Shown: positions 2,421 through 62,944, counted from the first letter of the stretch. The stretch: DNA of 64,000 nucleotides from a virus (IMGVR_UViG_3300029253_000304); one strand, 5' to 3'. The notes: generated from the letters alone by a model not told the origin. Translations and numbers: made by a program.

Positions 2421-2433
2421 TTCGCTTTTTGCT

Positions 2434-2461
2434 TGACAGCGTATGCGGCCGGAGTAAAATG
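2434..2461 (+). promoter_or_regulatory. sigma70-like promoter candidate TTGACA-16-TAAAAT
   Basis: hexamers read directly from sequence, upstream of the 2715 gene. Confidence 0.35.
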
Positions 2462-3440: not shown

Positions 3441-3468
3441 TTGCACATCTGTGCGGGTTAGGTACAAT
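3441..3468 (+). promoter_or_regulatory. sigma70-like promoter TTGCAC-16-TACAAT with TGTGCG in spacer
   Basis: hexamers and spacing read from sequence; precedes the 3575 gene. Confidence 0.4.
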
Positions 3469-3574: not shown

Positions 3575-5221
3575 ATGTCATTTTATTATAAACCAGAATG
3601 GTGCTTATATGCTGCCAGCGAAGTGGAACGAAATCAGGCTGCAAAGAAGCGCTTTGTTGATGAATATGAAAGCAATGTTTGCTACCGTAAGGAAGCCAAA
3701 AACCTACTCAATGATAAAATAATGGGCTTAACGGAAGTCGTACCTTCTCGTCGTGCCGATACGGTGAAGGTGGCTGCCGTTATGAGTTATTTACTATTCA
3801 ATGAAAACAAGCCAAAATGGACAAAACTTGTACAGCTGCTGGGACGCGATTTTTCCTATATGCCTCGAATGGTAAGTGCAATGTACGCAGGTACGAAGGC
3901 AGCATACGATTTCACAGATGAAATCAACAAACCGGAGAACGTGGCAAAGAGATATCTGTTTTTCTTGTACGGATATGCCAGCCCGGAAAGCCAGCTTCCC
4001 CAAAACAAAGATGTCTATGATATCTGGACCCGAAATTTGGCAAATTCAGAAGGCGAAGACAGCGCCATCCAAAGAGAATTCTTTGCGAAACTTGGCACAG
4101 GCGTACAGAAAACAATTAGTGACCTTCAGAACAAAGTGATTGCCGATATGAACAAAGCAACTATTGATGTGAAAGTAAACGATAACTTAACAATCCAAAA
4201 GACAGAATTCAGTGATTCGAATTACTCCATCATGTGTGATGGCTATGCTATCTGTGAAGATGCTATGTGTCAGGCAGGCGTTGGCTTCAAACCAGTAGCA
4301 AACAGACCTCTAACAAAACAAGAGTTCCGTAATATGCAGGCAAATCTCGCGGAGGATGTTCAGTTTGTCTGCAAAGAGGACGATGACAGCTTTTGCTTTG
4401 GCATGCTGGAAGCCCTTGTTATGGATGGACTTATCACCGTTGATGATAAGAACAACATGCTGATTTCCCAGAAAGTATCGCAGCAGACGCTTAATCTTAT
4501 CAATCTTTATAACTTTATGCTTCCTGTTTACGCGTCAGTCTACAACTTGGCGAATGCTTACGCCGATGAAATTCGTAGAGCTGTTTCGCGTGAGCTGTTT
4601 GGACAGGATGAGGGTGCTTCGGATGAAATGTTCGTTAAGCAGATTGACGCTCTGAACAAAAAGCTGGTAGACGCAGAGGCTTGTGTAGAGCGAGCTGAAA
4701 ACAAGGCAGCTGATGCAGACAAGTTGCTGCAGCAGAGTAAGAAGCGCGAAAACGCTCTGACATCCAAGCTGGAAACGGCGTATGCGGAGATTGACGAACT
4801 GATGCAGCTGGTTCCGGAAGAGACAGAGGATGATTTGCCAGATGAGCAGGAGGCTCTTGAGGAAGAAACCTTGCAGCCTGACGATGAACCCGATGTCGAT
4901 TATAGGAAAAAGCTGGATGAACTACTTCAGAAATATTCGGTTGCTGTCGTTGGCGGCAATCAAAACCTGATGAAGCGATTCCAAGTTCTTCATCCCGATG
5001 CCATCTATGTGAGCAAAGATATGGTGGCGGCCTGTGACCAGATGATTCACGCTGCAGACCTTGTGCTCTGCAAGGTGGATTCCATGTCTCATGCACTTTA
5101 CAATAAATGCAAAGTGACATGCCATCGTTATGATGTTCAGATGAACTATCTGCCGAATGTCACATCCTGCACGCGCCTTGAAAAATGTATGTGCGAGATG
5201 ATTGAGGCACTCTCTGCTTGA
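3575..5221 (+). CDS. coiled-coil protein with C-terminal DUF2325-like domain
   Basis: ATG at 3575 preceded by AAGGAGG (the ORF track start 3569 is a TTG); central charged coiled-coil; C-terminal segment (VAVVGGNQNLMKRF...VLCKVDSMSHALYNKCK) resembles DUF2325. Confidence 0.5.
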   Translation: MSFYYKPEWCLYAASEVERNQAAKKRFVDEYESNVCYRKEAKNLLNDKIMGLTEVVPSRRADTVKVAAVMSYLLFNENKPKWTKLVQLLGRDFSYMPRMVSAMYAGTKAAYDFTDEINKPENVAKRYLFFLYGYASPESQLPQNKDVYDIWTRNLANSEGEDSAIQREFFAKLGTGVQKTISDLQNKVIADMNKATIDVKVNDNLTIQKTEFSDSNYSIMCDGYAICEDAMCQAGVGFKPVANRPLTKQEFRNMQANLAEDVQFVCKEDDDSFCFGMLEALVMDGLITVDDKNNMLISQKVSQQTLNLINLYNFMLPVYASVYNLANAYADEIRRAVSRELFGQDEGASDEMFVKQIDALNKKLVDAEACVERAENKAADADKLLQQSKKRENALTSKLETAYAEIDELMQLVPEETEDDLPDEQEALEEETLQPDDEPDVDYRKKLDELLQKYSVAVVGGNQNLMKRFQVLHPDAIYVSKDMVAACDQMIHAADLVLCKVDSMSHALYNKCKVTCHRYDVQMNYLPNVTSCTRLEKCMCEMIEALSA

Positions 5222-5388
5222 CGGATTGTGCGGCACGGATAAAATAATAAATGTACGATGGATAACATTGAACGGTTTCATACGTTTGGGACCCGTCGCA
5301 CAATTTACATTCTGCTGATATAGGCAGCCATCCTTTACCGGGTGGCTGCCTATTTTTATCGGCATATCAAATAGAAAGGAGTTTATCA

Positions 5389-8205: not shown

Positions 8206-8233
8206 TGTATGATTGTTGCACGCCTTTGCGAGG
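8206..8233 (+). promoter_or_regulatory. promoter TTGCAC-16-GATAAT upstream of pilin-like gene
   Basis: hexamers and spacing read from sequence; spacer TTTGCGAGGTGCA resembles the conserved island spacer. Confidence 0.4.
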
Positions 8234-8326
8234 TGCAGATAATAGATATTGTAGAGTTAAAGGGTTGAACAATCAGTTCACGAAGGCTCTACTACGATGA
8301 TAATCGAAGGAAGGAGGTAGTTCGAA

Positions 8327-39500: not shown

Positions 39501-40286
39501 TTTCACTGAATTCCGATTCAACATTATTTGGCGTGGCTCAGCTTGGCCCGGTAGCACGATACCATGGCGGCCAAACACAATGATTCTCCAGAACGGAATT
39601 CTCGACATTCGGTGCGAATCGTATATAATCTAAATAATAAAACAGTATAGGAATATAGCTAAGCCGCCAAGCGAGTGAAATCGTTTGGTGGCTTTTCTTT
39701 TTGCTACGGAAAAGTAGATATTGTACTTGTCATGAGCTTGTTGCATACTTGCTAAGCACTTGCTACGCTTCACCTCGAAGCAAGTTCATTTTTTTTGCGC
39801 GAAAGAATATCGGATAAGTGACGCTTCCTACTCGTATGACCGAAAGAAAACATGCAAAGACTCTACCATTCTGGTAGGGCTTTTTTGCTGCCCAAAAAGT
39901 TGGAAAAATGTCGCAAGCGAGCCGCTGAAACCTCGGAATTTTGTCGCAGCCTTTCCGAATATGAGATGTATCTCACAAAAGCGAAATGCGCTGCTTCGTA
40001 TCTGTGGTGAGACAATCGGAACAGGCGAATAGCAAAATCTCAGCTGCCGCAAATGCTGTCAAGTTCAAATCACAACTCCCAAAAGTTTCGTTTGGGAAAG
40101 CCTGCATTAAAAGTTTCGTTCTGGAAAATGCAGAGGGGAAAGGAAAATGCCGAAGCATATATGCACTGATTTTCTTCTTGCTATTTGTGCAATCCGCTCA
40201 AATTGGCGATAAATATTCCCAAAATAAATAAGTCAAAGTGCTTTTGGTGTATAATGGCTCTGACAAACAGAAAAAAGGAGAACACT

Positions 40287-43464: not shown

Positions 43465-43468
43465 AAAG

Positions 43469-46802: not shown

Positions 46803-46812
46803 AGTATCCTCC

Positions 46813-49838: not shown

Positions 49839-49866
49839 TTGCGCCGCTGTGCGAACTTCGTACAAT
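49839..49866 (+). promoter_or_regulatory. conserved-spacer promoter (a): TTGCGC-cgcTGTGCGAACTTCG-TACAAT
   Basis: member of the seven-copy TTGCnn-16-xAxAAT family with TGTGCGAAYTG in the spacer. Confidence 0.5.
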
Positions 49867-49969
49867 AAGAATTGTACAAGAGAAACGGCAAGAGACATTT
49901 GTAGTGATTGTAGTTGGTCGCCACGAATCGATGCCGTGTCTGCTTGCGCATAATTACCTCTTTTCGAAG

Positions 49970-50004
49970 CCCACAGGCCATTCTCTCACCTGTGGGTTTT
50001 GTTT
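49970..50004 (+). terminator. intrinsic terminator ~105 nt downstream of promoter (a)
   Basis: stem CCCACAGG...CCTGTGGG followed by TTTTGTTT. Confidence 0.5.
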
Positions 50005-50015
50005 ATTGCGAAATC

Positions 50016-50043
50016 GTGCGAATTGCAGACAATTAAAGACAGA
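50016..50043 (+). promoter_or_regulatory. conserved-spacer promoter (b): TTGCGA-aatCGTGCGAATTGCA-GACAAT
   Basis: same family; lies ~60 nt upstream of omega-RNA-like copy 1. Confidence 0.5.
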
Positions 50044-50094
50044 GCGATTGTGAGATGGGGCGATACCGATGCAGTAGGGATGAGAATCTTAGCA

Positions 50095-50410
50095 GCTAAA
50101 AGAGTCAACAACCCCGCCTAAACCGGTTCGCCGGTTATAGACGGGGCTTGCGGGGCAACCTGTAAGCCCAGTTGATTAGCCTAAGCCCATTGCTCCGGCA
50201 GTGGGGAAAACTACGTTGTGTACTAATAATATAGGCACCTTATCCATGCTCCACAAGTGGTGAGCTCTGCAGGCGTTTCGTTAAACATCTCCGAGGGGAG
50301 GAGAAGTGCGAGCGTCATGTCGAAAGGCTAAAACAGTGCATAACATTGGCGAAGTGGACCACAGGACGCAAGTCCTGACTTATAGTTTTATTACTATTTT
50401 ACGAATGGAG
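50095..50410 (+). ncRNA. IscB-type omega-RNA (HEARO-like) scaffold, copy 1, with no IscB gene downstream (flotillin gene instead)
   Basis: ~85% identical in blocks to 63180-63545; a compensatory pair change inside a GNRA-capped hairpin (CAGGAC-GCAA-GTCCTG here, CAGGGC-GCAA-GCCCTG in copy 2); shared 3' end carrying an RBS. Confidence 0.5.
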
Positions 50411-50421
50411 AAACAAAAATT

Positions 50422-52065
50422 ATGGTATATGTGATTGGAATTGTAGCAGCCCTGATTATTCTCTTTGGATTTCTCTGCTACAAGAAAGCTCCGCCCACGG
50501 AGGCTATCGTTGTAACTGGCTTTGGCCTGTCTAAGCCTAAAGTGGTTTGCGGAAAGGGTACATTTGTTCTGCCCGTTCTTCAACGGGCTGACCGACTGAA
50601 TATGCGCCTTTTGAAAATCGATGTCAAGACTCCTGAAACAGGTGTTAAGACGAAGAACGGCGTAAGTCTCTGGATTGACTCTGTTGTCACGATTCAAGTC
50701 TACAGCGAAAACTCTACCGTTCTGGATGAAGAAGTGAAGGCATCCGGTCTGAAAGACGCCAAGGCGTACATCATGTCCCGACAACAGGCAGCCATCTCGA
50801 ACTTTCTGGGCATGAACGAGCAGGGCATCAATGAGAAAGTTAATGACGTTCTGCAGGGCAATTTGCGTGAGATTGTCTCTGACATGACCGTTGACCAAAT
50901 TCTGACGAACCGCAAGCAGATGGCTGTGAGCGTTATCGAGAATGCTCGCCCCGACCTTGCTAAGATGGGACTTGAGGTCGTGACTTTTAATGTCCAGGAC
51001 ATCAGGGATGCAGTGGATGTTCAAGGCCACAATCACGGCGTTATCGAAGCTATCGGCATTGAACAGGAAGAGCTTGTGAAAAAACAGGCTGAAATTGCCC
51101 GTGCTCAGGCTGCCCGTGATGTAGCCTGCGCGAAGGCCGATGCTGAGATGGCTGCAAATGCCAAGGAAGTTGAAGCGCAGACTGCGATTGCAAAACGCAA
51201 CAATGAATTGCAGCTCGCCAAGGCAAAGCTGAAAGCTGAAGCTGATAAAGCTGCGGCTGACGCAGATGCTGCCGGTCAGATTCAGATGAATCTCCGCGCC
51301 AAAGAAATCAAAGAAGCGGAAGCGGATGCTGAAATCGCCAAGCAGAAGAAAATGGTAGACCTTGCCGCACAGGAAGCCGAGGTCCAGCAACGCAAACTGG
51401 ATGCGGAAGTCCGCAAACAGGCAGATGCTGACTTGTACCGCCGCCAGAAAGAGGCAGAAGCCAAGAAATATGAGGCGGAACGTGCAGCTGAGGCACAGAA
51501 GTTCTCCAAGCAGCAGGAAGCAGAAGGCATTGAGCTTGTCGGTAAGGCAGAAGCTGAAGCGATTCGTCAGAAAGGCTTGGCTGAAGCGGAAGCCATGAAA
51601 CAGAAAGCAGAGGCATATAAGCAGTATAACGATGCGGCTGTGGCTGAAATGCTCATCAAGGTTCTTCCTGACATTGCCAAGAGCGTGGCTCAGCCTTTGT
51701 CCAGCATTGATAAGGTTTCTATCATTGGCGGTGATGCCTCCGGCGTATCCGGCGTTTCCGGGAACGTTCCTATCCTGATGGCTCAAACCATGCAGACGGT
51801 GAAAGAAGCGACTGGCATTGACATGGGCGAAATTGTCCGTGCCAACAGCATCCAGGCAAAGACAAACCGCAACATCAACATTATGACTCAATGTGAACAG
51901 CCTGAGAATAACAAAGAGAAAGGAGGTGCCAAGGCAATGGAACGCGTAGAAGGCGGCTATCTGATTCATGAGAAGAATCTCAACGGTGAGGAAGTCACTC
52001 ATTTTCGACCGGATGTGACCGAAGAAGAGAAGGCTATCATGAAAGACAAAAAGGCCAAAGATTAA
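50422..52065 (+). CDS. flotillin-like SPFH/band-7 protein (FloT/YuaG-like)
   Basis: N-terminal TM then SPFH domain; long AEAEA-rich coiled-coil; 547 aa. Confidence 0.85.
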   Translation: MVYVIGIVAALIILFGFLCYKKAPPTEAIVVTGFGLSKPKVVCGKGTFVLPVLQRADRLNMRLLKIDVKTPETGVKTKNGVSLWIDSVVTIQVYSENSTVLDEEVKASGLKDAKAYIMSRQQAAISNFLGMNEQGINEKVNDVLQGNLREIVSDMTVDQILTNRKQMAVSVIENARPDLAKMGLEVVTFNVQDIRDAVDVQGHNHGVIEAIGIEQEELVKKQAEIARAQAARDVACAKADAEMAANAKEVEAQTAIAKRNNELQLAKAKLKAEADKAAADADAAGQIQMNLRAKEIKEAEADAEIAKQKKMVDLAAQEAEVQQRKLDAEVRKQADADLYRRQKEAEAKKYEAERAAEAQKFSKQQEAEGIELVGKAEAEAIRQKGLAEAEAMKQKAEAYKQYNDAAVAEMLIKVLPDIAKSVAQPLSSIDKVSIIGGDASGVSGVSGNVPILMAQTMQTVKEATGIDMGEIVRANSIQAKTNRNINIMTQCEQPENNKEKGGAKAMERVEGGYLIHEKNLNGEEVTHFRPDVTEEEKAIMKDKKAKD

Positions 52066-52185
52066 AGACAACATGAAAAGAGGGTGACTCGAAAGAGCCA
52101 TCCTTTTTTCTGTTGTGACGCAAACGAAAAGTTCATGGTAGCCATCCAATTTGGGTGACTGTCTTTTTTGCATGTTAAGGCTTTG

Positions 52186-52213
52186 TTGCTGAATTGTGCG
52201 AATTGAAGATAAT
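52186..52213 (+). promoter_or_regulatory. conserved-spacer promoter (c): TTGCTG-aatTGTGCGAATTGAA-GATAAT
   Basis: same family. Confidence 0.5.
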
Positions 52214-52267
52214 TAAAAACAAAAGATGCTTTGTATCAAATCGATTGAAACCGAAGAGGTGAAGTTA

Positions 52268-53071
52268 ATGCTCGGCGTGAGTTTGATTATCATAGCAGCG
52301 GCTATAGTCTACATGGTCGAAACCTATATCAGCACCTATTACACTATCGAATACATGCACGGAACATCGCTGTTCCTTATCCTCCTTGCGAAATATGGCA
52401 CGCCAGTCCTGTTCCTGCTGCTCTGCGCCTACATTGCATATCGCAAATTCCTCAAAAAGCAGAAAGCTGCGGCTTCTGCTGCATCTGAACGGCCTACAAG
52501 CAAAGAAGAGCTGTATACCAACAAAATTCAAACGGCAGTAAAGACAAAAAGCGTCTTCTCAGAGCAGGCTGACCAAATGCTGTATCAGGTACGGCGCTTC
52601 GGGCAAAAAATGGCCGTTGCCTACAGCATGACCCAGGATAGCAAGACATCCGGGGAACAAGCCAAGTGCCTAACGTTATTGGAATCCGCAGAACGTATCT
52701 TCTATGACCGACTGGATGACGCGATTCGCTCGGCTTCAATGTTTGATGAAACGGAATACAAGGCTTTCTGTCAAGGCTCTATCTCGTTTGGAAACAAAGA
52801 AGAAGCGCAGAAAAAGAAAGAAATCTACAATGGTATCGTAAGTACCGTGGATAAGGTAGTTCATGACAATGAGCGCTTAATCCTCCGATTGGATTCTTTA
52901 GCATACGCTCTGAACCAACGTTCTGCCCAGAATCCGTGGGATACAGAGGTTGTGCTCGCAATGTCAAAGCTCGATGCTGTCATTAACAAGACGACGCAGG
53001 ACATCGAGCAGGATGAAGTAATCAGCCGCGAGGCTATGAAGCAATATGATATTTTGAAAGGAGAGTCTTAA
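52268..53071 (+). CDS. membrane protein with two N-terminal TM helices and a coiled-coil cytoplasmic region, unknown function
   Basis: ATG 52268 with GAGGTG RBS (the ORF track start 52226 lies only 6 nt from the predicted TSS). Confidence 0.45.
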   Translation: MLGVSLIIIAAAIVYMVETYISTYYTIEYMHGTSLFLILLAKYGTPVLFLLLCAYIAYRKFLKKQKAAASAASERPTSKEELYTNKIQTAVKTKSVFSEQADQMLYQVRRFGQKMAVAYSMTQDSKTSGEQAKCLTLLESAERIFYDRLDDAIRSASMFDETEYKAFCQGSISFGNKEEAQKKKEIYNGIVSTVDKVVHDNERLILRLDSLAYALNQRSAQNPWDTEVVLAMSKLDAVINKTTQDIEQDEVISREAMKQYDILKGES

Positions 53072-53072
53072 C

Positions 53073-54767
53073 GTGACGAAGAAAAATATTTTCCCTGTAG
53101 TTGCAACCATCGCCGTGGTGGGTGTTGTTCTCGGAGTATTTTCGATGACGGTGATGAGGGACTCGAATGTCAGCATCAGCACGATGACTTCCGAGCAGGC
53201 ATATGCCAACTTGAGCAGCAAGATGAAACGTATCGGGGTGCAGGAAGTATCCGTCAATCCGCAGCAGCTTGATGTATCGGAGTTTCTGGACGCAAAGGAT
53301 GAACTGCCCGACATTGAATCCTCCTACCCATTCGTGGTGGAGGGGAACGGTGATGTCAACATTGAAGTCTTCTCTTCCGGCGAGAAAGCAGCAGAATCCG
53401 GCTCCGATTCTTTCCTGACAAGCATGGCAAAAAAGTTCAATGCCCAGCACAACAAGACTTCCGGAGACAAGACTATGAGTGTCTCCCTGCGCTCCGTTCC
53501 GTCCGGTACGGCGGCTGAGTACATCTCGACGGGAAAGTATCAGCCCGAGTGCTATACCCCCTCAAATACGCTCTTTGGCGAGCTGGTGAAGAACGAGGGC
53601 GTAGAATTGACCGTTGAGGCTGACCGTCTGGTCGGCAATGTGGCGGGTATTCTCGTATCAAAGAAGACAGGGGATATGCTTCGCTCTGAATACGGTGAAG
53701 CGTCTGTTTCTTCCGTTCTGAACGCAACCATCGATGGCAAACTCATGATGGGATACTCGAACCCCTACACAAGTGCTACGGGTCTTAATTTTCTGCTTGA
53801 GGCTCTTGCGAGCAGCGGCAGCGATACGATTGTCGATACGGCTGCTGTTGAGAATTTCCAGAAATTTCAAGCGAACGTCCCTCTCGTATCCTTCACGACC
53901 CAGCAGATGGTCCAGTCGGCAGACAAGGGCATCGTGGACGGCGTTGTCATGGAGTATCAGTCTTATCAGAATGACCCGACCTTACAGCGCAACTACGAGT
54001 TCATCCCGTTCGGTGTGCGGCATGATAACCCCCTGTATTCTATTGGAAGCATCTCGGCCGAAAAGAAGGAAGTTATTGCTGCGTTCGTTTCCCTCTGCGC
54101 CCAGAATCAGGCAGAAGCGACGAAGGACGGGTTCAATGGTCTTGACGACTATGCTTATACAGGCAAGGCATACGACGGCAACACCATCGCACAGGCTCAG
54201 AGTGTCTGGAAAGAAGAGAAGGATTCCGGTATTCCTATTGTGGCAGAGTTCGTTGTCGATACTTCCGGCTCGATGCGCGGCGAACCCCTGAATGCCCTGA
54301 AAACCGCGATGATAAACACCATCCAGTATATCAATGACGACAACTATATCGGCATCATTGGCTTTGATTCAGATGTCAGGGAATACCTGCCCATTGACCA
54401 GTTCTCTCTGACCCAGAAAACTCTGTATAAGGGTGCCGTGAACTCCCTCGATGCGAACGGCAGCACCGCAATGTACAACGGTCTTTGCGTTGCTATGGAC
54501 CGCATCTACCAGAAATCTCAGGAACTGGGTGGGAATTGCACGCCCATCATCTTTGTGCTCACGGACGGTGACAACAATACCGGATATGACTTCTCCGATA
54601 TGAAGAACATCATTGCCGGTATGGATATCCCTATCTATACCATCAGCTACAACTACGCGGCAGACAGCCTCTCGGAACTCGCGTCAATCAATGAGGCGGC
54701 TGCTATCGTTGGTAACAGCGAGGATATCACCTACAAGCTCCGCAACTTGTTCAACGCGGAGATGTAA
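53073..54767 (+). CDS. membrane-anchored von Willebrand factor type A (vWA) domain protein
   Basis: N-terminal TM; C-terminal vWA with MIDAS DTSGSM...T...D and the later block IIFVLTDGDNN. Confidence 0.7.
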   Translation: MTKKNIFPVVATIAVVGVVLGVFSMTVMRDSNVSISTMTSEQAYANLSSKMKRIGVQEVSVNPQQLDVSEFLDAKDELPDIESSYPFVVEGNGDVNIEVFSSGEKAAESGSDSFLTSMAKKFNAQHNKTSGDKTMSVSLRSVPSGTAAEYISTGKYQPECYTPSNTLFGELVKNEGVELTVEADRLVGNVAGILVSKKTGDMLRSEYGEASVSSVLNATIDGKLMMGYSNPYTSATGLNFLLEALASSGSDTIVDTAAVENFQKFQANVPLVSFTTQQMVQSADKGIVDGVVMEYQSYQNDPTLQRNYEFIPFGVRHDNPLYSIGSISAEKKEVIAAFVSLCAQNQAEATKDGFNGLDDYAYTGKAYDGNTIAQAQSVWKEEKDSGIPIVAEFVVDTSGSMRGEPLNALKTAMINTIQYINDDNYIGIIGFDSDVREYLPIDQFSLTQKTLYKGAVNSLDANGSTAMYNGLCVAMDRIYQKSQELGGNCTPIIFVLTDGDNNTGYDFSDMKNIIAGMDIPIYTISYNYAADSLSELASINEAAAIVGNSEDITYKLRNLFNAEM

Positions 54768-55188
54768 TCCAAAAGCGCGGTTTTGTCCGCGCAGCTGCTC
54801 CAAAAGACAGCCTCCACACGGCGAGCAGCGGGAACATGCTGGTCGGAAACGGCACGGTCGTCAGCTGCCAGTGCCACTCGATGGATGAGACGGTCGATAT
54901 GGTCGCCGCCTTGTACAATGGCAGAAGCAGCGCAAGCATAACCATCCTGCAAAAATATATGCCGTTCATCTTTTTGGGTGGGCGGCTTTTTGTTTTGTGA
55001 ATACAGCGATTCAGTGGCGAAGCGAGCCGATTTTACCAGCAGTTTGATATTCTGCGGCATCGGCGTTTTGCGGCATCCAGCGAGAGAATATCGTTTGCTT
55101 CGATGACGAGGCGGCATTTTCGCATTATAAGGTCCTGTTCGAGACCTTCAAGGAGACCTGCTCCGACAATGTCTCCTATAAGGCAGTC

Positions 55189-56625
55189 GTGAACACCATG
55201 AACCAGGAAGATTATCTGAAAGAGAACATCAAAGAAGTGCCCGTCTTTCAGTCTATTGAAAAGCAGAAGCTTGTCTTTCTGGAACAGGCACAGCCTGAGG
55301 ATGAGGTCGAATACGAGATAGTTGCCGATGTCAAGAAAATGCAGGAACTCGTCAAGCCAATCATGCCTAAGATGCCGGTACAGGCGAATCGTATTGTAGT
55401 GGCAGCGGAACCGATGCGCGTTTTCGGGAAACGATATACCGAGGTTCGGCGTGTGGCAGCTGAGGCAGTTAAGCAGCTCCCAAAATTACATATCGACTAT
55501 GATGCCGGGACCATGACCTTCAACGACGAGAATATCGACCTCAATCCGAATCTCAGCGAGGTGGCAAAGAACATCAAGAGCATCCAGAAGTTCTTCTCAG
55601 GCATGGACTACTTTTACGGCGATGTCGAACAGGCCAAGAAGGACTACTTCAAGTACATGACCTGGTATCTGGCTACTCCGTTCATGGCGTATCTGCGGTA
55701 TTTCGCATCGAGGAACAACTACGATACGAAGCTGTTCCCGATGTACGGCGTTATATACGGCGACTCAAACGGCGGCAAGACGACATTTATAAAATTTCTT
55801 GTCAAACTCATGTGCGGTGAGACCGTTAAGATGAACACAACGGAGGATTTCACAGCCACAAGAATCGACGGCCTCAAACGAGTTTGTGAGGGACTGCCGC
55901 TGAACATCGACGACCTCGCCAAGACCCAGTTTCAGAACCATTCAGAACGGGTAATCAAGAACGATGAATGGGGTATCTCTGACAGGCTCGTGAACTATCC
56001 TGCTGTATCTATCACATCGAATAAAATTACCTCGCTGACAAAAGACCTCTCGAAACGCGCTATCATCTGTCGAATTGGTGCTAAAATCGACAACGAGCGC
56101 GGTGCCAAAAACTCGAAGCGTGTGAATGAGAGTATGTCGGAGCTGACAACCGCGTTCTATGGCGAATATGTCCGCCGAATGCTTGTTTGCATCGATGAGA
56201 TGACGACGGAAATGCGTGAAAATGCGAATGGCAAGGAATACTTCCCGGATATCTTCTACGCTTCGTCTAGTGTCATTGCAGATATCTTCGAGGCATGCGG
56301 AATCGATTTGCCGGACTATGTGCGTATCCTGTACTATAACGACTATATGGGTGATGAGAGCATTGGTCGTGCTGCAATTGAGAAAATCGAACTGGCATGG
56401 CAGGCTGACCCGAGCAAGTTCCGGGTTGATAAGAAGCAGAACAGGCTCATTTACTCCTATCCGCCGGATGGACCGTGGTACGAACTGAAATACATTGCAG
56501 ATGAGCTGCCGAACTCCCTCGAAGCAGAGATTTCTGGCGGCAACCAGCTTATCATGAACTACGAGCAGGCACAGGAATTGTTCGGCATCAAGTTTCGGCG
56601 CTGGCTGGGCATCTTTAACCTCTAA
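55189..56625 (+). CDS. P-loop NTPase of uncertain family (possibly P4/D5-type SF3 helicase-like)
   Basis: Walker A GDSNGGKTTF; Walker B-like LNIDDL; ~170 aa unknown N-terminal domain. Confidence 0.5.
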   Translation: MNTMNQEDYLKENIKEVPVFQSIEKQKLVFLEQAQPEDEVEYEIVADVKKMQELVKPIMPKMPVQANRIVVAAEPMRVFGKRYTEVRRVAAEAVKQLPKLHIDYDAGTMTFNDENIDLNPNLSEVAKNIKSIQKFFSGMDYFYGDVEQAKKDYFKYMTWYLATPFMAYLRYFASRNNYDTKLFPMYGVIYGDSNGGKTTFIKFLVKLMCGETVKMNTTEDFTATRIDGLKRVCEGLPLNIDDLAKTQFQNHSERVIKNDEWGISDRLVNYPAVSITSNKITSLTKDLSKRAIICRIGAKIDNERGAKNSKRVNESMSELTTAFYGEYVRRMLVCIDEMTTEMRENANGKEYFPDIFYASSSVIADIFEACGIDLPDYVRILYYNDYMGDESIGRAAIEKIELAWQADPSKFRVDKKQNRLIYSYPPDGPWYELKYIADELPNSLEAEISGGNQLIMNYEQAQELFGIKFRRWLGIFNL

Positions 56626-56676
56626 TATGCATGGCAGGTTCTTTTCGGAGCCTGCCTTCTTATTTCGCAAAAATAG

Positions 56677-56704
56677 TTGCCCATTTGTGCGAATTGCAGA
56701 CAAT
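56677..56704 (+). promoter_or_regulatory. conserved-spacer promoter (d): TTGCCC-attTGTGCGAATTGCA-GACAAT
   Basis: same family. Confidence 0.5.
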
Positions 56705-56784
56705 CAGAAGTAAAGCATAAAGCGAAGGAGCTGAGTACCATCTCAAAATTTGCAAGCAAAAAGTTGATTGAGCGAAATTGCAAT

Positions 56785-57231
56785 ATCATGAAAGACTACG
56801 GCAATGGCTATTCCGTTGAGGAGCTTGCCACAAAATATAGGTTGAGCGTCCGTACTTGCTATCGAGCGTTAGACGACGCGAAACAGGAGGCCAGAATTCA
56901 GTTGGCGCAGGTAGAGGATGCTAGAAAGGCCGAAATTCTTGCTGCGTACAAAGCCAGTGTCCCTCTCAAGGAAATGATTGCAAAATTCAACGTGGCAGAA
57001 GGATATTGCAGCATGGTTGCCAACGATGCGGGCCTGACTGAAAACCGTAGAAATGAGCGCATCAAAATTAGACAAAGACCGCGCAATGAGAATATCTTTC
57101 GAGAATACGAGAGCGGCGTGCCGGTGCAGAAACTATCCGAAAAATATCAGCTCTCGGTTCCTGGTATTTACAAGGTTATCCAGCGAGTGAGAAGGCAAAA
57201 GGAGGCGATGGAGTTTTGCAATGGATTGTGA
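56785..57231 (+). CDS. small regulator with two tandem HTH-like repeats (start uncertain: TTG 56761 or ATG 56785)
   Basis: two copies of Y-x-x-G-x-SV-x-x-L-x-x-KY-x-LSV-x-x-x-Y+ modules; the ORF track start 56677 lies inside the promoter. Confidence 0.4.
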   Translation: MMKDYGNGYSVEELATKYRLSVRTCYRALDDAKQEARIQLAQVEDARKAEILAAYKASVPLKEMIAKFNVAEGYCSMVANDAGLTENRRNERIKIRQRPRNENIFREYESGVPVQKLSEKYQLSVPGIYKVIQRVRRQKEAMEFCNGL

Positions 57232-57854
57232 AGCAAACCAAATCGAAAGGATATGAGTTCACCTTCGATATCGTGAAAGGCAAGGCCGTTATCGGGCAGG
57301 CACACTATATTCCGAAAGTGCTGCGGCAAGGTTATGGCATCCGGCTGAATGATTCCAAGTTCCTGCTGCAATACATGCCAGCTGCTGACGCAAGGGCGTA
57401 CATGCGCGGCATCAACACGAAAGATATTCTGAGACACCCTTTTGCTATCTGTGAGAACAACCGCAGGGTAGGCGAGATTTCCGTCATCCATACAAAAACC
57501 GGATTCCTCCAAGGATACAATTCTATCGCCATGCAACTGTATGGCGAGGAATACCAGAGCTACAAAATCGGCTTTGGAAAAGAAGGAGTATGCTGCCCTG
57601 TATTCCTTTGCGGACAGCAAATCGCCCAAATCAATAAGAGCGCGGTGGTCAAGGATAATCTGGATGAATACCTGATTTACGCAGTGAATGAAAAGGCACT
57701 GATGCCGTCCGTCATGTTCGCCATTTATATCGATGGAATATACTACGCAAACCGAGGCGTGTATGTGGATGACGCAACGACTATCAACTGCGAATACAGC
57801 TTGAACGAGGAAGTCCTGTCCCACTACGACCCGAATTTTGTCAAGGGACTATGA
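57216..57854 (+). CDS. hypothetical protein (212 aa)
   Basis: overlaps the end of the HTH gene (operon); no motifs. Confidence 0.45.
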   Translation: MQWIVKQTKSKGYEFTFDIVKGKAVIGQAHYIPKVLRQGYGIRLNDSKFLLQYMPAADARAYMRGINTKDILRHPFAICENNRRVGEISVIHTKTGFLQGYNSIAMQLYGEEYQSYKIGFGKEGVCCPVFLCGQQIAQINKSAVVKDNLDEYLIYAVNEKALMPSVMFAIYIDGIYYANRGVYVDDATTINCEYSLNEEVLSHYDPNFVKGL

Positions 57855-57887
57855 CTCCGATAACTGGTATTCACAGACAATATCATA

Positions 57888-57915
57888 TTGCGAAACTGTG
57901 CGAATCGCAGACAAT
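57888..57915 (+). promoter_or_regulatory. conserved-spacer promoter (e): TTGCGA-aacTGTGCGAATCGCA-GACAAT
   Basis: same family. Confidence 0.5.
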
Positions 57916-57954
57916 TAAAAGTGAATGAATTACAAAAGCTACAGAGGATAAACA

Positions 57955-58551
57955 ATGAGCTATGAACCCATTATCACACCGGGCAGGAATTTCTTTCTTG
58001 TCTCGACGGAGTACAAAGAGAGCTGCTCTGCCTGGTGCCGCAAGCAAATTAGAGCGACGCTGAGGACCTGTCAGGGACGAGTCATCATCATTGATGCAAC
58101 GGGCGAGTACGCGGACTTGGCGCTTGAACATGACAGATTGATTCGAGAGAAAATCCCGTCCATCATTTATCGGTATAAGCTGGTGGACGGGAAACCGTAT
58201 ATTGCTCATGTCATTGAAGTTGATACGGAAGCAAATGAAGCACCGCACCTGATTGTATACGATATCAGCCGGACCATAATCATCAGCTGGAAGGTCGGCG
58301 TGGAGGCAATTGATAAAATCCTGCAATCCTATGCCGTGATGCAGGACAGTGAAATTGCGTGGCTGTATGTTCCGCTGGACTTATATACCAATGTCAAGCC
58401 TGAAACCGAATCCTGGAACATTCTGGAACGAACCATCAAGGGCAATGAAGGAAAGCTCATGACGGTGCTGACAACACGAAAATTCAACATCGGCATGGTT
58501 CAGCGCTGTTTGCATATGACAAAAAATAAACTTCTGGAGGATAGCAAATGA
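57955..58551 (+). CDS. hypothetical protein (198 aa)
   Basis: RBS AGAGGA; first gene after promoter (e). Confidence 0.45.
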   Translation: MSYEPIITPGRNFFLVSTEYKESCSAWCRKQIRATLRTCQGRVIIIDATGEYADLALEHDRLIREKIPSIIYRYKLVDGKPYIAHVIEVDTEANEAPHLIVYDISRTIIISWKVGVEAIDKILQSYAVMQDSEIAWLYVPLDLYTNVKPETESWNILERTIKGNEGKLMTVLTTRKFNIGMVQRCLHMTKNKLLEDSK

Positions 58552-59435
58552 CCAATGAACAGCTGAGAATTGCATTGACGGCGAATGCCGTTACCAAACA
58601 GACCCGTAACCATTTTGGGTTCAGTGACCCGTGTGGGAAGACTCTGGAAGAGTACAACAAATCTTCAATGCTTTGCTGTGTGACGGCAGCGCAGAAAATG
58701 AACACGCCGGGTTTCGAGCGTGTCCTTGCTGCACAGATTTTCCCCTGCTTCACCATCGGCTGCTGGAACCAGACGAAGACGGTCTATGATTTTGACTACG
58801 AGTTCCAGAAAATTCTTATGGATACGGATGACATGGCGATTCATCAGGATATCCTGCAGCGGCTTCCGATTCGTGATTTCTTTATCCCGGTGTATGACAG
58901 CTACGACTACAACGGTATGTTCGTGCATGTGGAATTCGAAGAGAAAGAGAAGACCACTGCTTTCGGCATCGTTCTTGTCGGCCCGGCCAAAGGCAGCCAT
59001 GATGATTTCACGTTCCTGACTCTGCCTGCCTGGGCCAAAGAAAACCAGAGCTTGACGGAAGCAACTCGGAGCACGAAAGAATACCTGGAAAAGGCAGCCG
59101 GGCAGCGGCAGGTAAATGGTATCAGCGTACCGGCTGTGATGGAAGCAGTTCCTTCGGTCTTTGACGGCGGCACGCCTTATGTTCGCCTGGCAATCCTGTG
59201 TGCCTACTATCTTGCCAGTAAGAACCCTGATGTCCGCTTGGAAACTTCCAAAAAGCGTGACCGCCCGGTATTCGTGTTTCAGGGAAAGGCACAGCGAATC
59301 AACGTCAAGGCATATACCGTTGGTGAGAATGCGGCCAAAGAATACAAGAAGAACGGGGAAGGCAAAACTCCCCGCTGGCGGCATTACTGGTGCGGCAATG
59401 GCCGGGAACGTCGGGAATGCAAGTTTATTTACTGA
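58548..59435 (+). CDS. hypothetical protein (295 aa)
   Basis: ATGA overlap with the upstream gene; RBS GGAGGA; no motifs; the antisense ORF 58665..59552 is rejected. Confidence 0.45.
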   Translation: MTNEQLRIALTANAVTKQTRNHFGFSDPCGKTLEEYNKSSMLCCVTAAQKMNTPGFERVLAAQIFPCFTIGCWNQTKTVYDFDYEFQKILMDTDDMAIHQDILQRLPIRDFFIPVYDSYDYNGMFVHVEFEEKEKTTAFGIVLVGPAKGSHDDFTFLTLPAWAKENQSLTEATRSTKEYLEKAAGQRQVNGISVPAVMEAVPSVFDGGTPYVRLAILCAYYLASKNPDVRLETSKKRDRPVFVFQGKAQRINVKAYTVGENAAKEYKKNGEGKTPRWRHYWCGNGRERRECKFIY

Positions 59436-59453
59436 TGGCGGTGAGGGTGAATC

Positions 59454-60161
59454 ATGGCTCCCCATACTTATCAGGACCCGATTGGGTTCTATGAATGGTT
59501 CGATGACCTTCCTTATGCTATCCAGGATAGTATTCTGAAACACCTGCCGCATATGGAAGGCGAGGAATGGCTCATTGTCATTATCCTTGCAGCTCTTCTT
59601 CTGATGATTCTGGTTTCAGCGTATCTGGGCTTTGCAAGACATAATGTCAAAAAAACGAGTGAACGACTCAACGCTTTGAAAGAGCTGAACAACACGACTG
59701 AATTCATGCCGGTCGAGGCGCAGTACCGCTACTATCTACGTTCTGATACGAAGCTGGAATACGAGGAGTTCTCGCTCCCGAAGTTCTTTCGCCGTGAAGT
59801 GAGGGAAAACTTCAAGCTGTACAATACCCTGCTTGGCAATGCTCGGGCAAACACAGTATTGTATGAAACATACGGCCGCGAAATCCAGGAACTCCCGGAT
59901 TGGACAGAATCGGATGACGATTGCGGGCGGCATATCCCGTTCTTTCTCTACCACAACATCGAGAAAGAGTTGTACGATGAAACTGTCCTGGACTGCCCTG
60001 TAACGAACCCTGAGTTTGTCTGTACGAAAAGCTATCTGCCCAAAGATGCCAAAGAGCCGATTGAGACGGAAGAGACCTATACACTGGAGGAACTGGAAGA
60101 GTACATACGCCGCTTGAAGGTTGCAGCCGATGTCAAGAAGAACAGCCAAAACGCAGGCTAA
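59454..60161 (+). CDS. hypothetical single-TM protein (235 aa)
   Basis: one TM helix (LIVIILAALLLMILVSAYLGF); acidic C-terminal region. Confidence 0.45.
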   Translation: MAPHTYQDPIGFYEWFDDLPYAIQDSILKHLPHMEGEEWLIVIILAALLLMILVSAYLGFARHNVKKTSERLNALKELNNTTEFMPVEAQYRYYLRSDTKLEYEEFSLPKFFRREVRENFKLYNTLLGNARANTVLYETYGREIQELPDWTESDDDCGRHIPFFLYHNIEKELYDETVLDCPVTNPEFVCTKSYLPKDAKEPIETEETYTLEELEEYIRRLKVAADVKKNSQNAG

Positions 60162-60364
60162 AAGGGTAGCGGCCAAAGGCAAGAGGCAAGACTCCGTGGC
60201 TGTCAGTTGCAGAACGTCTTCACACCTGAATTCTTGAATTTTGCCAGTGCTTTGATGAATAATGAAGAGCGCACGCCCCGTCTATAGCCGTAAGGCTTAG
60301 GCGGGGTTAGCTCGTGTTTTGGAGCAGAAATCAGAAATTATTGTTTTCCGTTCTGATAAAGGTA

Positions 60365-60392
60365 TTGCCTGGTTGTGCGAACTGGATACTAT
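60365..60392 (+). promoter_or_regulatory. conserved-spacer promoter (f): TTGCCT-ggtTGTGCGAACTGGA-TACTAT
   Basis: same family; drives the TnpB-like gene. Confidence 0.5.
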
Positions 60393-60417
60393 AAAATTAT
60401 AGTAAACTGCAAGGGAG

Positions 60418-61911
60418 GTGAGTGCTTTGAATATTACATCCAGCTATCAGGTGAGAATCGTCAATTGCAGCGTAAACCTCAATGAGACTGTTCGCATTTA
60501 TCGCAAGGCACTTGCCTACCTGATTGGTGTTGTCAATGAAAACTGGGATGCCGTCAAACGCATTGATACCGGCAATCTTGAGCAGCAGCACTATATTGAC
60601 AAGCTAGTTCATGGCACCAAAAATCATGAGGCTAAGTATCCTGAATTTGATAAGCAGTTCTATAAGTACCCGTCGTATTTGCGCCGTGCAACTATTACGG
60701 CCGCCATTGGCGCGGTAAGCGGCTATCACAGCAATCTAGCTAATTGGGAAATGTCCGACAAAAAGGACAAACAGCCTACTCTTCAAGTAGATAGAAAAGC
60801 TTTTCCTACATTCTTCCGCGTTGATATGTTCCTTGTGGACGGCACACCCGAAAAGGTGAAAGTCGTAAAAAATCCTAAACCGAAGGATGAACTCACGGCA
60901 GAAGAAAAGAAAATCGAGAAAGCAAAACGCAAAGCTGCTGAATTACAGAACTCTCAAAATGAACTGACGGTTTTGAGTAATCACTGTACCGTTCGCTTGA
61001 AAGTTTTCTATAAAAACGACTGGGTGTGGGCAACTGTCACGCTGCGTAAAACGGATATTGCCTATTTACGCAAATACTGGATGCACGCTTGCTCGTCAGC
61101 CCCTATGCTCGAAAAGCGTTTCGGCAAATACAGCCTGCGCTTTGCTTTTGAGGAAAATACTACTCTTAGTGATACTCCTATCGATAAGCAGCGCGTCTGC
61201 GCCGTCGATTTAGGTCTCAATACCGATGCGGTGTGCAGCATCATGACCGCTGATGGAACTATCCTTGCCAGGAAGTTTATCAACTTCCCGAGTGACAAAG
61301 ACCATCTGTATCATGTACTTAACCGCATCAAGAAGTTCCAAAGGCTGCATGGGTCCCGGGAAGCGCATAACTTTTGGGCCTATGCAAAGCGCGTTAATGA
61401 TGAATTGTCCAAAAAGATTGCCGCCGCGATTGTAGAATTTGCGGTCCTCTATTCTGCCGATGTGATTGTTTTTGAGCACTTAGATTTCAAAGGCAAGAAA
61501 TCATCGTGCAAAAAGCAAAAAATCCAGATGTGGCGTAAAAATGGTATCCAGCGCATTGCGGAACATAAAGCGCACCGCTGCGGTATTCGTATCTCGCACA
61601 TCTGCGCTTGGGGGACTAGCAAACTTGCGTATGACGGCAGCGGCGAAGTGAAACGCGCACCAGATAACCATTCCCTTGCTACTTTTACAAGCAGCAAACA
61701 ATACAATGCGGACTTGAATGCGTGCTACAACATCGGCGCACGCTATTTCATCCGTGAGGTAACAAAACCCATGTCAAAAAAGGCATGGTCTCAATGCAAG
61801 GCTGAAGTTCCTGACATTGAGCGTAGAACCCAATGCACTTTACACTCTCTCAGACAGCTGCATGCCTTTTTGAGCACTCCAAAAGAGGCTCAGCCTGAAG
61901 CAGCCGCCTGA
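60418..61911 (+). CDS. TnpB-like RuvC nuclease (497 aa) with degenerate zinc finger
   Basis: RuvC-I AVDLGLNTD, RuvC-II VIVFEHLDF, RuvC-III YNADLNACYNIGARYF; only a partial C...C where CxxC...CxxC is expected. Confidence 0.7.
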   Translation: MSALNITSSYQVRIVNCSVNLNETVRIYRKALAYLIGVVNENWDAVKRIDTGNLEQQHYIDKLVHGTKNHEAKYPEFDKQFYKYPSYLRRATITAAIGAVSGYHSNLANWEMSDKKDKQPTLQVDRKAFPTFFRVDMFLVDGTPEKVKVVKNPKPKDELTAEEKKIEKAKRKAAELQNSQNELTVLSNHCTVRLKVFYKNDWVWATVTLRKTDIAYLRKYWMHACSSAPMLEKRFGKYSLRFAFEENTTLSDTPIDKQRVCAVDLGLNTDAVCSIMTADGTILARKFINFPSDKDHLYHVLNRIKKFQRLHGSREAHNFWAYAKRVNDELSKKIAAAIVEFAVLYSADVIVFEHLDFKGKKSSCKKQKIQMWRKNGIQRIAEHKAHRCGIRISHICAWGTSKLAYDGSGEVKRAPDNHSLATFTSSKQYNADLNACYNIGARYFIREVTKPMSKKAWSQCKAEVPDIERRTQCTLHSLRQLHAFLSTPKEAQPEAAA

Positions 61912-62147
61912 TGTAGATGTACTGTGTTGCGACAACTTTGCGGGAGACTAACCCTTATGTGGTGACCAATGCCGTCAGGCGTTGTGAGCTAAGTTTGGGC
62001 TGTATCTCTACCTTCGGGTAACGCAGAGACTTACCGTGGGGCTACAACCCACGGAGAAGCCCCGTTTAAGCCGCAAGGCTTAGGTGAGGAGGTTCACATT
62101 CTGCGGGCATTGACAAACAGCCAAAAATGTGCTTAGGTTAAAAATCC

Positions 62148-62175
62148 TTGCAAAAACGTACGATACCCATACAAT
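62148..62175 (+). promoter_or_regulatory. promoter TTGCAA-16-TACAAT without the conserved spacer
   Basis: read from sequence; upstream of the 62216 gene. Confidence 0.35.
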
Positions 62176-62215
62176 AAGCACAAATGAAATAACGAATGAA
62201 TAGGAGATACATACC

Positions 62216-62824
62216 ATGAGTGAACAGAATACCAATGCTCAGCTCGAAGCTTATCGGACTCTCGTTGACGATTTCAAGCGTTTCGTCAGTTCTGAAATTC
62301 GGGCAGAGGAAAACAGCTACCGGATTGTGGACATGACTTCCGAAGATGCCGAAATCGATGACCCGAGCGTTCCGGTGACTCAACTGGAGGACGAAAAAGC
62401 AGAGAAGCTCGCCGGTATCTGCATGGACCTGTCCAACGCTACGCTGTGGCTCTACTACAACCACGACAAGTTTGCGAACGTCGAGTTTATGCCTCTGAAA
62501 GAGGAGACTTTGAAGGAATACCAGAAGCAGGCTCAGAATGCTCTGAATGAACCGAAGAGCCCTCTGTATCTGAAATCCTGGTATCAGCTCATTGAAATGT
62601 TGAGTCAGGAATGTATCCCGCAGCGCTACGAGGACGACGGTCAGCGATATACAGACGTCTATGTGAACACCTATATGCTCATGTACCTGACCATGACCCG
62701 ACTCAAGAACGGCGGAACCTTTACACGCCTTGCAAACGGGCAGGGAAGCGATGCTGTGAAAATCACGACCATCGCAATGTACTACTTCTCCAGCCTTTTG
62801 ACGGTTCTCTGCACTGAATATTAA
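62216..62824 (+). CDS. hypothetical protein (202 aa)
   Basis: RBS AGGAGA; no motifs. Confidence 0.45.
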   Translation: MSEQNTNAQLEAYRTLVDDFKRFVSSEIRAEENSYRIVDMTSEDAEIDDPSVPVTQLEDEKAEKLAGICMDLSNATLWLYYNHDKFANVEFMPLKEETLKEYQKQAQNALNEPKSPLYLKSWYQLIEMLSQECIPQRYEDDGQRYTDVYVNTYMLMYLTMTRLKNGGTFTRLANGQGSDAVKITTIAMYYFSSLLTVLCTEY

Positions 62825-62882
62825 GAATTTTTTTCCCGTGTGAGCAGCGACGCTCATGCGGGAATTTTTTTGTAATTTTCTA

Positions 62883-62910
62883 TTGCTAATCTGTGCGAAT
62901 TGCGTACAAT
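62883..62910 (+). promoter_or_regulatory. conserved-spacer promoter (g): TTGCTA-atcTGTGCGAATTGCG-TACAAT
   Basis: same family; upstream of small ORF, omega-RNA copy 2 and the IscB-like ORF. Confidence 0.5.
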
Positions 62911-62944
62911 AGCAAATATAAAGTAGAAGTATATCGAATCGCTG

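Follow-up and report, generated by a model that had tools for sequence, protein, structure and literature searches.

Regulon-defining boxes of mobile genetic elements are well known, among them the operators of KorA/KorB, the omega heptads, the MotA box, the Mor/C sites, and the Q/AlpA binding elements. In the KorA/KorB system of IncP-1 plasmids (and in the ArdK/StbA-type networks of IncW and IncN), an autoregulated plasmid protein recognizes a site that stands at a fixed place in many backbone promoters; the KorA and KorB operators are palindromes of 12-13 bp. The omega repressor of Firmicutes plasmids (inc18, pSM19035) is a ribbon-helix-helix dimer that binds 7-10 contiguous WATCACW heptads located upstream of or over the -35 element. 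Aca proteins are helix-turn-helix (HTH) proteins encoded beside anti-CRISPR genes; their sites are inverted repeats inside the promoter, private to one operon, and the outcome is a burst of expression on entry followed by shut-off. The AlpA-dependent promoter PalpB has a 6-bp binding element between the -35 and -10 elements, the -10-like sequence CACGAT at -1 to +5, and, further along, a terminator (PMC9371919), and the lambdoid Q-dependent promoters combine a Q binding element with a sigma-dependent pause element (PMC9388147). Here we describe a promoter box found in a 64,000-nt stretch of DNA catalogued as viral (IMGVR_UViG_3300029253_000304; "the window" refers to this whole stretch), which, to judge from its genes, is part of a conjugative element. 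The box has the core TGCGAA and occupies one fixed place between a -35-like and a -10-like hexamer. Very probably it is an element-specific regulator box set within sigmaA-type promoters and read in register with the host RNA polymerase. What is new compared with the systems above is the strict place of the box in the spacer, its use across both backbone and cargo units of an element family highly prevalent in the gut, its link to a small family of HTH-repeat proteins, and its coupling to leader terminators.

An earlier note on this DNA, made from the sequence alone, had drawn attention to seven look-alike promoters with a shared spacer block. The pattern given there has no match in the window as written, carrying one surplus position after GTGCGAA; the corrected strict pattern, read off the seven sites directly, is TTGCNNNNNYGTGCGAAYYKNRKAYWAT, i.e., TTGC-N5-Y-GTGCGAA-Y-Y-K-N-R-KAYWAT. 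It has seven matches in the window, all on the + strand (Table 1), vs none in dinucleotide shuffles of the window, so that the group of seven stands. One start had been misplaced: the site listed at 50016 begins at 50006, and 50016 is the first base of its GTGCGAA. The layout is as the note described it, namely a TTGCNN -35-like hexamer, a 16-nt spacer, and a KAYWAT -10-like hexamer (TAcAAT/GAyAAT); position 19 is C at site 57888 and position 20 is T at site 49839. The core GTGCGAAYT is present in six copies in the window, every one within a box site, with 1.5 copies expected. The window box sites are intergenic and oriented toward the next + strand gene or RNA, and a ribosome-binding site (RBS) with an open reading frame (ORF), or an RNA, is found 30-170 nt downstream of every one of them. 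The 80-nt flanks on each side of the seven sites score no higher in mutual similarity than shuffled controls do, and positions 5-9 and 21, which are free, vary among the sites. The similarity is therefore ascribed to position-specific selection and not to recent duplication, which removes the spread of a promoter cassette by recent duplication that had been offered as one explanation.

Scans with the strict pattern matched at least 119 stretches each in metagenomes and in IMG/VR, nearly all from the human gut, and by their unrelated downstream sequences the instances can be sorted into at least 43 groups. A position weight matrix (PWM) was built from 43 unrelated box instances; at a score of 12 or more it has no match in 1 Mb of shuffled loci, and it gives about 130 distinct box promoters among the matches listed (human-gut metagenome and IMG/VR contigs). 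These promoter counts are counts of distinct sequence contexts, not of independent evolutionary events, most of the related loci forming one mosaic family (312 of 340 loci are connected by shared segments). A separate lineage whose proteins are just 45-70% identical retains the same box. Occurrence of the same spacer at most housekeeping promoters had been named beforehand as the observation that would speak against an island-specific reading. A scan of 185,579 species genomes (GTDB), made with the strict pattern only, instead found 14 matches, compared with about 17 expected by chance from the information content, and two contigs of a single Clostridiales metagenome-assembled genome (MAG) account for eight of the 14, all on one strand, each contig with weaker sites nearby. 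A chromosome-wide distribution of the strict pattern was seen in none of these genomes. The box is restricted to the element family and is not a host-wide feature. Literature searches by motif text, by element and promoter keywords, and by the CD3324 family name found no description of the box; the motif text returned primers only.

From 133 distinct promoters the consensus reads TTGC nn A w w Y K TGCGAA y y G c a K A y A A T, and the bases just downstream are rich in A. Its invariant core, the 6-bp TGCGAA, occupies motif positions 12-17 (approximately -23 to -18), where each base is fixed at 84-100%. In the -35 element, TTG is conserved at 98-99% and the next base is the non-consensus C in 84% of the promoters, with a mean match to TTGACA of 3.65/6; in the -10 element, A24 is present in 100% and T28 in 96%, with a mean match to TATAAT of 4.89/6. 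The spacer is 16 bp long (17 bp in a handful of sites). The canonical extended -10 TG occurs in three of the 133 promoters, TG one base further upstream in 70, and G replaces T at -12 in 27%. Free positions 5, 6, 8, 9, and 29 are near random across the approximately 130 promoters, A stands at position 7 in 66-84% of sites even though no search constraint was set there, and no conserved element is found upstream of position 0. The register is rigid: among 640 distinct TGCGAA contexts, TTG is found at -11 in 134, a -10-like hexamer at +11 in 118, and both in 110, whereas the neighboring registers are at background (three each). As the earlier note had it, the sites are sigma-70/sigmaA-type promoter-like sequences whose spacer block is conserved far beyond chance. 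Two internal patterns were noticed. The core forms part of a partial palindrome, TGCGA-A-TYGCA, which pairs at 4-5 of 5 positions; its right arm is present in 35/133 promoters and in only one of 24 leader-type promoters (see below). The motif can also be divided into three TGC heptads, TTGCnnA (positions 1-7), GTGCGAA (11-17), and TTGCAKA (18-24).

Several known sites were considered for the box. The LexA Cheo box is CGAAC-N4-GTTCG and the Spo0A box is TGNCGAA. Sites of sigma54, CcpA, CRP/FNR, and DnaA were ruled out by inspection of spacing and consensus. Against the LexA and Spo0A sequences, CGAAY alone fits LexA and the second half-site is missing, and TGCGAA is one base short of the 0A box. 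Activation by a MerR-type spacer-binding protein was rejected as well, since it needs a palindromic spacer of 19-20 bp and the spacer here has 16 bp.

The box is not confined to the seven strict sites. The promoters at 3441, 8206 (here 8216), and 62148 had been said to share the hexamers or a TnTGCG fragment only; the PWM places all three in the same class as weaker members (scores of 23, 26, and 11, respectively, with no matches in shuffles at four thresholds), and it also finds 39602 and three sites in the 9 kb upstream of the window (flank L255). Sites 5218 and, faintly, 2433 share the layout. In total, 12-13 box sites stand at the fixed promoter position within the window. Both in the window and in the upstream flank, box sites precede the type IV secretion system (T4SS) operon and other backbone units. 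The box was not seen in the gaps inside the long T4SS operon, in the gap before 55189, or ahead of the - strand insertion sequence (IS)/TnpB and cargo genes of the window. The clustering of boxes at 49.8-62.9 kb reflects the many short units located there and not a special island; the island-specific framing of the earlier note has thus to be given up, as the weaker boxes precede the T4SS operon and backbone units and related elements hold about 130 promoter contexts.

Table 1. Predicted box promoters of the window, their downstream features, and the candidate regulator gene
Feature	Position	Strand	Remarks
Strict box promoter (predicted)	49839..49866	+	Transcript of ~130 nt, ending at terminator 49970-50004 just ahead of the next promoter
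Strict box promoter (predicted)	50006..50033	+	Followed by orphan HEARO/omega RNA 50104-50364 and flotillin/SPFH gene 50422-52065
Strict box promoter (predicted)	52186..52213	+	Ahead of gene of no known function ~52271-53071 and vWA gene 53073-54767
Strict box promoter (predicted)	56677..56704	+	Top PWM score in the window; ahead of the three-HTH gene
Strict box promoter (predicted)	57888..57915	+	Ahead of three genes 57955-60161, including AcrVA2-like protein 58548-59435
Strict box promoter (predicted)	60365..60392	+	Ahead of distant TnpB-like gene (Aq_aa04 family) 60418-61911
Strict box promoter (predicted)	62883..62910	+	Leader of ~60 nt, terminator 62944-62979, 68-aa membrane ORF 62998-63204
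Same 62883 unit, further downstream	second omega RNA 63187-63500, IscB start 63555 onward	+	Predicted from sequence
Degenerate box promoter (predicted)	62148..62175	+	CGTACGAT replaces YGTGCGAA; ahead of 202-aa gene 62216-62824
Weaker box promoter (predicted)	39602..39629	+	TCGACA -35-like hexamer, GTGCGAA core; transcript meets terminator 39662-39702
Weaker box promoter (predicted)	8216..8243	+	TTTGCGAG core; L1-like leader; ahead of T4SS pilin gene and long T4SS operon
Weaker box promoter (predicted)	5218..5245	+	GTGCGGC core; L1 leader from 5252 onward, terminator 5320-5357
Downstream of the 5218 leader	gene 5389-5829, then RecD2-like helicase gene	+	Predicted from sequence
Weaker box promoter (predicted)	3441..3468	+	GTGCGGG core; degenerate L1 leader, terminator 3519-3548, DUF2325 gene from 3569
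Faint, doubtful class member	2433..2460	+	TTGACA...ATGCGG...TAAAAT; PWM score below threshold; L1-like leader, terminator 2563-2599
Candidate cognate regulator	56740..57231	+	~160 aa, three Mor/C-like HTH modules

The gene behind the best-scoring box encodes the sole DNA-binding candidate of the window. The earlier note had named its product, as a tandem-HTH regulator, the protein to be assayed on these promoters; it remains a sensible candidate for its place behind the best box and for its co-occurrence with the box down to 38% identity, but it has three HTH modules and not two. The protein matches Pfam Mor (1.2e-12, above the gathering score) and HTH_28, both of its ends match PHROG families annotated as "late transcriptional activator" (PHROG 532 and 836), and its score against the NCBIfam CD3324 family is 54.6 bits, below the cut-off of 65. 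An alignment with its paralogues and an AlphaFold model (predicted local distance difference test score, pLDDT, of 74) give three tri-helical HTH modules without the Mor dimerization domain. A fold search with this model returned no significant global match, only local matches to LuxR-, sigma4-, and Mor-like HTH modules. The wider family is small, comprising 230 clusters among 1.84 billion representatives, with arrays of up to 10-13 modules; among relatives P0030, P0033, P0047, and P0052 are proteins of 600-900 aa in which 7-13 HTH repeats were matched, long tandem arrays of Mor-like modules. The start codon of the gene is uncertain (ATC at 56740, TTG near 56770, or ATG at 56788). Public gene calls (P0004, P0006, and P0007) run the protein back through its own promoter, so that the box turns up in them as the peptide ...NCANCRQSE...; translation probably begins downstream of the AAGGAG at 56725, possibly at the non-standard ATC 56740 or at TTG near 56770.

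Box promoters are present in 80/80 IMG/VR loci that were fetched by means of the three-HTH protein. Homologues at 59% and 38% identity are encoded on elements that have the box, and a homologue at 31% identity is encoded on an element without it, which has ordinary TGnTATAAT promoters; this last case is the sole informative negative for co-variation of box and protein. Paralogous multi-HTH genes exist, as do promoter subclasses. The co-occurrence is consistent with the box and the three-HTH protein being a cognate pair.

The motif is the predicted signature promoter of a widespread family of large conjugative elements of human-gut Clostridia, where it stands ahead of most transcription units. 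We tentatively favor, with rather less than even confidence, the reading that the box is the operator of an element-encoded repressor. An element-encoded DNA-binding protein would dock on TGCGAA and so bring backbone and cargo units under one control; with the operator lying between the -35 and -10 elements, the bound protein would block RNA polymerase. On entry of the element into a cell that lacks the protein, all units would fire, and they would be damped as the protein accumulates. The best candidate for this role would be the three-HTH Mor-like protein, which would also regulate its own synthesis. A common operator for one regulator, as first suggested for the seven sites, is still the single most likely reading in view of the element-wide box, the rigid register, and the co-occurring protein. 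Repression is ranked first because the box sits where a bound protein blocks the polymerase, because one autoregulated global repressor is the usual logic of a plasmid backbone (KorA/KorB), and because, as in Aca-type circuits, anti-defense cargo usually shows a burst of expression upon entry that is followed by shut-off. Anti-defense-type genes are indeed found in box-driven units, i.e., the AcrVA2-like gene in the window and Lar and NADAR genes in relatives.

The resemblance to KorA/KorB lies in the same site standing at a fixed position in 12-13 promoters of the window and in at least 110 promoters of one register; the difference is that here the invariant part is six asymmetric base pairs, the host is Gram-positive, and the three-HTH candidate is unrelated to KorA. 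Like omega, the putative regulator would be a global plasmid regulator reading short 7-bp units over promoters, but at most three TGC heptads are present, spaced 10 and 7 bp apart, and the candidate is built of HTH repeats. The likeness to the Aca circuits consists of an AcrVA2-like gene in the 57888 unit with an HTH candidate nearby, whereas here all units, conjugation genes among them, share one box.

Several points weigh against repression. The invariant part of the box is short and asymmetric, and the palindrome is a minority feature that almost never accompanies leaders, whereas classical dimeric repressors use longer symmetric sites. A register rigid to 1 bp is not needed for steric repression and is more typical of factors that work together with RNA polymerase, although common descent combined with a constraint on spacer length could also produce it. 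The poor -35 element, the rarity of the extended -10 TG, and the frequent G at -12 look more like factor-dependent promoters than like strong promoters held in check. In addition, the HTH modules of the candidate resemble activators (Mor/C), and approximately 40% of the box promoters meet a leader terminator, which a repressor model does not explain. Nor can the co-occurrence of box and protein count as phylogenetically independent, since nearly all loci come from a single mosaic family.

The first alternative, doubtful but deserving serious attention, is an activator-dependent promoter class like the middle and late promoters of phages, in which a multi-HTH protein would bind TGCGAA, possibly all three TGC heptads, and help the sigmaA polymerase. 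The Mor and "late transcriptional activator" matches of the HTH modules argue for it, as do the asymmetric core and its rigid register, a weak -35 element conserved in its non-consensus form, the missing extended -10, and the common G at -12. Three HTH modules would face three TGC heptads, with the unconstrained A at position 7 falling within the first of them, an idea that is based on the pattern only; paralogous multi-HTH genes together with promoter subclasses would also suit a set of such activators. As in the MotA (T4) and Mor/C (Mu) systems, the promoters form an element-specific class with a short box and a sigma70 -10 element, and a Mor domain is present in the candidate. The geometry differs: the MotA box replaces the -35 element at -30 and MotA needs AsiA, and the Mor/C sites are dyads (centered at approximately -43) upstream of or overlapping the -35 position in promoters that have no -35 element, whereas here the box lies inside the spacer and TTG is kept nearly invariant. 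Action of the MotA type would need a sigma-remodeling co-factor, and none is known for the box system. Finally, dependence on an element protein would delay the anti-defense genes after transfer.

The next alternative concerns the sequence downstream of the promoters. An intrinsic terminator is found within 250 nt downstream in 50/127 distinct box promoters vs 64/635 random windows, and in 41 of these 50 it lies ahead of the first ORF. Leader terminators accompany the window promoters at 2433, 3441, 5218, 39602, 49839, and 62883; two of these are strict sites, and the other five strict sites run directly into an RBS or an RNA gene. The short terminated transcript that had been pointed out in the window is accordingly one of a common class, a box promoter of the 62883/49839 type followed by a leader and an intrinsic terminator. 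About one fifth of the box promoters open with a conserved leader, which we call L1, of the form aaTTGTACGATAGATAaC, a variable hairpin, tCGTACAATTCACA, and a terminator. L1 is found after at least 18-25 independent box promoters; the hairpin is variable and apparently compensating, and the terminator is usually present and followed by an RBS. In the window, L1 occupies 5246-5357, with degenerate copies at 3469-3548, 2461-2599, and 8244-8300, and a further example is located at 8511-8620 of flank L255. Within L1, TTGTACGA is the reverse complement of TCGTACAA, and the two arms change jointly at 8216 (GUAGAG/CUCUAC). No match to L1 was found in Rfam at E values up to 1, RNAalifold on an automatic alignment of the leaders gave no consensus structure, and a scan for pairing of the 5' arm was weak. 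L1 is a candidate new cis-regulatory RNA, either riboswitch-like or a protein-dependent attenuator. Identity with the conAn2 or canT RNAs was rejected: those are 260-600 nt and approximately 450 nt long, and L1 is about 55 nt. The leader-type promoters form a subclass with T at -12 and without the TYGCA right arm. In 25/133 promoters, vs a background of 1.9, the -10-like sequence TAnnnT starts exactly at motif position 37 (approximately +2 to +7); it derives from the TACGAT of L1. Within the window, the backbone promoters at 3441, 5218, and 8216 have it and most of the seven strict sites do not.

A second class of short transcripts, of 55-65 nt in total, consists of a box promoter, rAATATAAG, some 10-15 nt, and a hairpin terminator. 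It was seen in the window at 62911-62979, where it precedes the 68-aa ORF, which is hydrophobic, and at loci L016, L110, L141, L144, L257 (16349 onward), and L124. It could be a small RNA, a leader, or part of a type I toxin-like arrangement.

These features suggest a loading site for an antiterminator of the lambda Q or AlpA type, a reading that we rate close behind the activator and regard as likewise doubtful but serious. A protein seated on the box would engage the polymerase paused shortly past the start and allow it to read through the leader terminators and those between the co-directional units. The enrichment of terminators fits this proposal, and the factor-binding element of such systems, between -35 and -10, matches the position of TGCGAA. 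The L1-leader subclass closely reproduces the order of PalpB, with a spacer element, xACGAT at the transcript start, and a terminator downstream. The rigid register is also in keeping with it, as is the arrangement of all units as co-directional and terminator-separated, and antitermination is found in Gram-positive conjugative elements, namely conAn (PMC8191782) and canT (PMC11658703). However, the -10-like element in the early transcribed region is present in about one fifth of the box promoters only, and most box promoters, including five of the seven strict ones, have neither a pause-like element nor a leader terminator. The known Q and AlpA systems act on one or a few promoters and not on ten or more per element. 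No Q or AlpA match was obtained among the window proteins in general scans of Pfam, PHROG, and NCBIfam, which included no search aimed at these families. In addition, TACGAT is also the 5' arm of the leader stem, and RNA structure alone may explain its conservation. A bolder form of the same idea, which we consider rather improbable, is that the box is the loading site of a new tandem-HTH antiterminator or polymerase co-factor. Elements of 100-270 kb would then be built of co-directional promoter-leader-terminator modules switched by read-through, with L1 as a second undescribed component.

Recognition of the whole 28 bp by an alternative or modified holoenzyme, with either a divergent sigma-like factor of the element or an alternative sigma factor of the host, is quite improbable. 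It would account for the high information across the whole promoter, for the rigid register, and for the contrast between this class and ordinary TGnTATAAT promoters found in a related context. Yet the hexamers look sigmaA-like (TTG... and TAnAAT with A-11 and T-7), and an alternative sigma factor of the host would leave many chromosomal copies, which are not seen. A phmmer search of 3.4 Mb of loci and the window, with E. coli RpoD and RpoE as queries, found no sigma-70-family ORF, nor did Pfam among about 50 window proteins; very divergent sigma-like proteins would escape these searches.

Spread of a promoter cassette by duplication or recombination, with a spacer of no special function, is very improbable: a rigid register would be expected from common descent, as spacer indels are rarely tolerated, but the similarity ends at the motif edges, the near-random free positions stand beside a core fixed at 84-100%, and the box persists in the lineage whose proteins share 45-70% identity. 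That the box is a species-wide trait of housekeeping promoters in the host is hardly credible given the scan of species genomes, in which the matches amount to the chance level and are concentrated in one MAG, and given that the IS and the - strand cargo genes inside the element lack the box.

The window encodes a T4SS pilin, a VirB4-like ATPase, a VirD4/TraG coupling protein, an M23 peptidase, a RecD2-like helicase, a YqaJ nuclease, and a UmuC-like polymerase, and it carries IS200/IS605 TnpA/TnpB insertions on the - strand. The region 49.8-63 kb is a series of short + strand units encoding flotillin/SPFH, vWA, Mor-like HTH, AcrVA2-like, distant TnpB-like, and IscB proteins, the last with an omega RNA. 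Look-ups of exact proteins traced these genes to hundreds of human-gut samples, on metagenome contigs of 100-276 kb; a near-identity search of phage and plasmid reference collections gave no close match. A phage origin, suggested by the IMG/VR matches, was rejected, as PHROGs finds no structural genes in the diverged lineage and the window has a T4SS. Many of the IMG/VR loci (L136-L254 and L260-L339, mostly from dataset 3300045988) are T4SS-bearing contigs of conjugative type, 35-250 kb long, that are catalogued as viral; PHROGs found no phage structural genes in the examined parts of these contigs. A block of - strand genes at 38247-49477 interrupts the + strand element and is free of boxes. 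It holds two full TnpB genes, an IS200-type TnpA gene, and several genes for proteins of no assigned function, one with a weak HD-domain match, and it looks like later insertions or cargo with their own promoters.

The box-driven units are rich in defense and anti-defense functions (58548-59435 in the window; relatives L256-L259 and L342), which include AcrVA2-like, NADAR, and Lar restriction alleviation proteins, an Apyc1-like lactamase fold, Eco57I, an EcoRI-type methylase, and GmrSD and NgoFVII-type nuclease fusions. The content of these units differs among otherwise near-identical elements. Two omega RNAs are present in the window. The copy at 50104-50364 (91 bits, above the gathering score) has no IscB gene and lies between a box promoter and the flotillin gene; the copy at 63187-63500 (50.7 bits, E = 7e-9) is 81% identical to it and lies immediately ahead of the IscB start (63555). 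In relatives L114 and L093 the omega RNA starts about 10 nt past the -10 element of a box promoter, and the guide RNAs therefore appear to borrow element promoters. Recognition of the box by the local omega RNAs was considered as well and found no support, the core having no copies outside promoters on either strand of the window. The TnpB-like protein (497 aa, 60418-61911) gives a weak match to TnpB/Cas12f models and a precomputed assignment to Pfam family Aq_aa04. Between its gene and the next promoter lie about 230 nt of non-coding DNA, rich in GC and in hairpins (region 60418-62140), which may be a guide-RNA scaffold.

If antitermination proved to be the true mode of control, regulation of the Q/AlpA type would be extended to Gram-positive plasmids and to an element-wide scale. 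If the regulator-box reading holds, a very common and so far undescribed family of conjugative elements in gut Clostridia would have its own promoter code, which can be read from sequence. Such a code would offer a cheap way of marking transcription units and would correct gene calls that translate a promoter, and it would define a testable regulon of one box, one small protein family, and about 130 target promoters. In gut Firmicutes that are otherwise hard to engineer, the box promoters could be used as element-specific expression parts. For the elements themselves, the box would join the control of conjugation genes to that of anti-defense cargo and of the IscB/TnpB guide RNAs.

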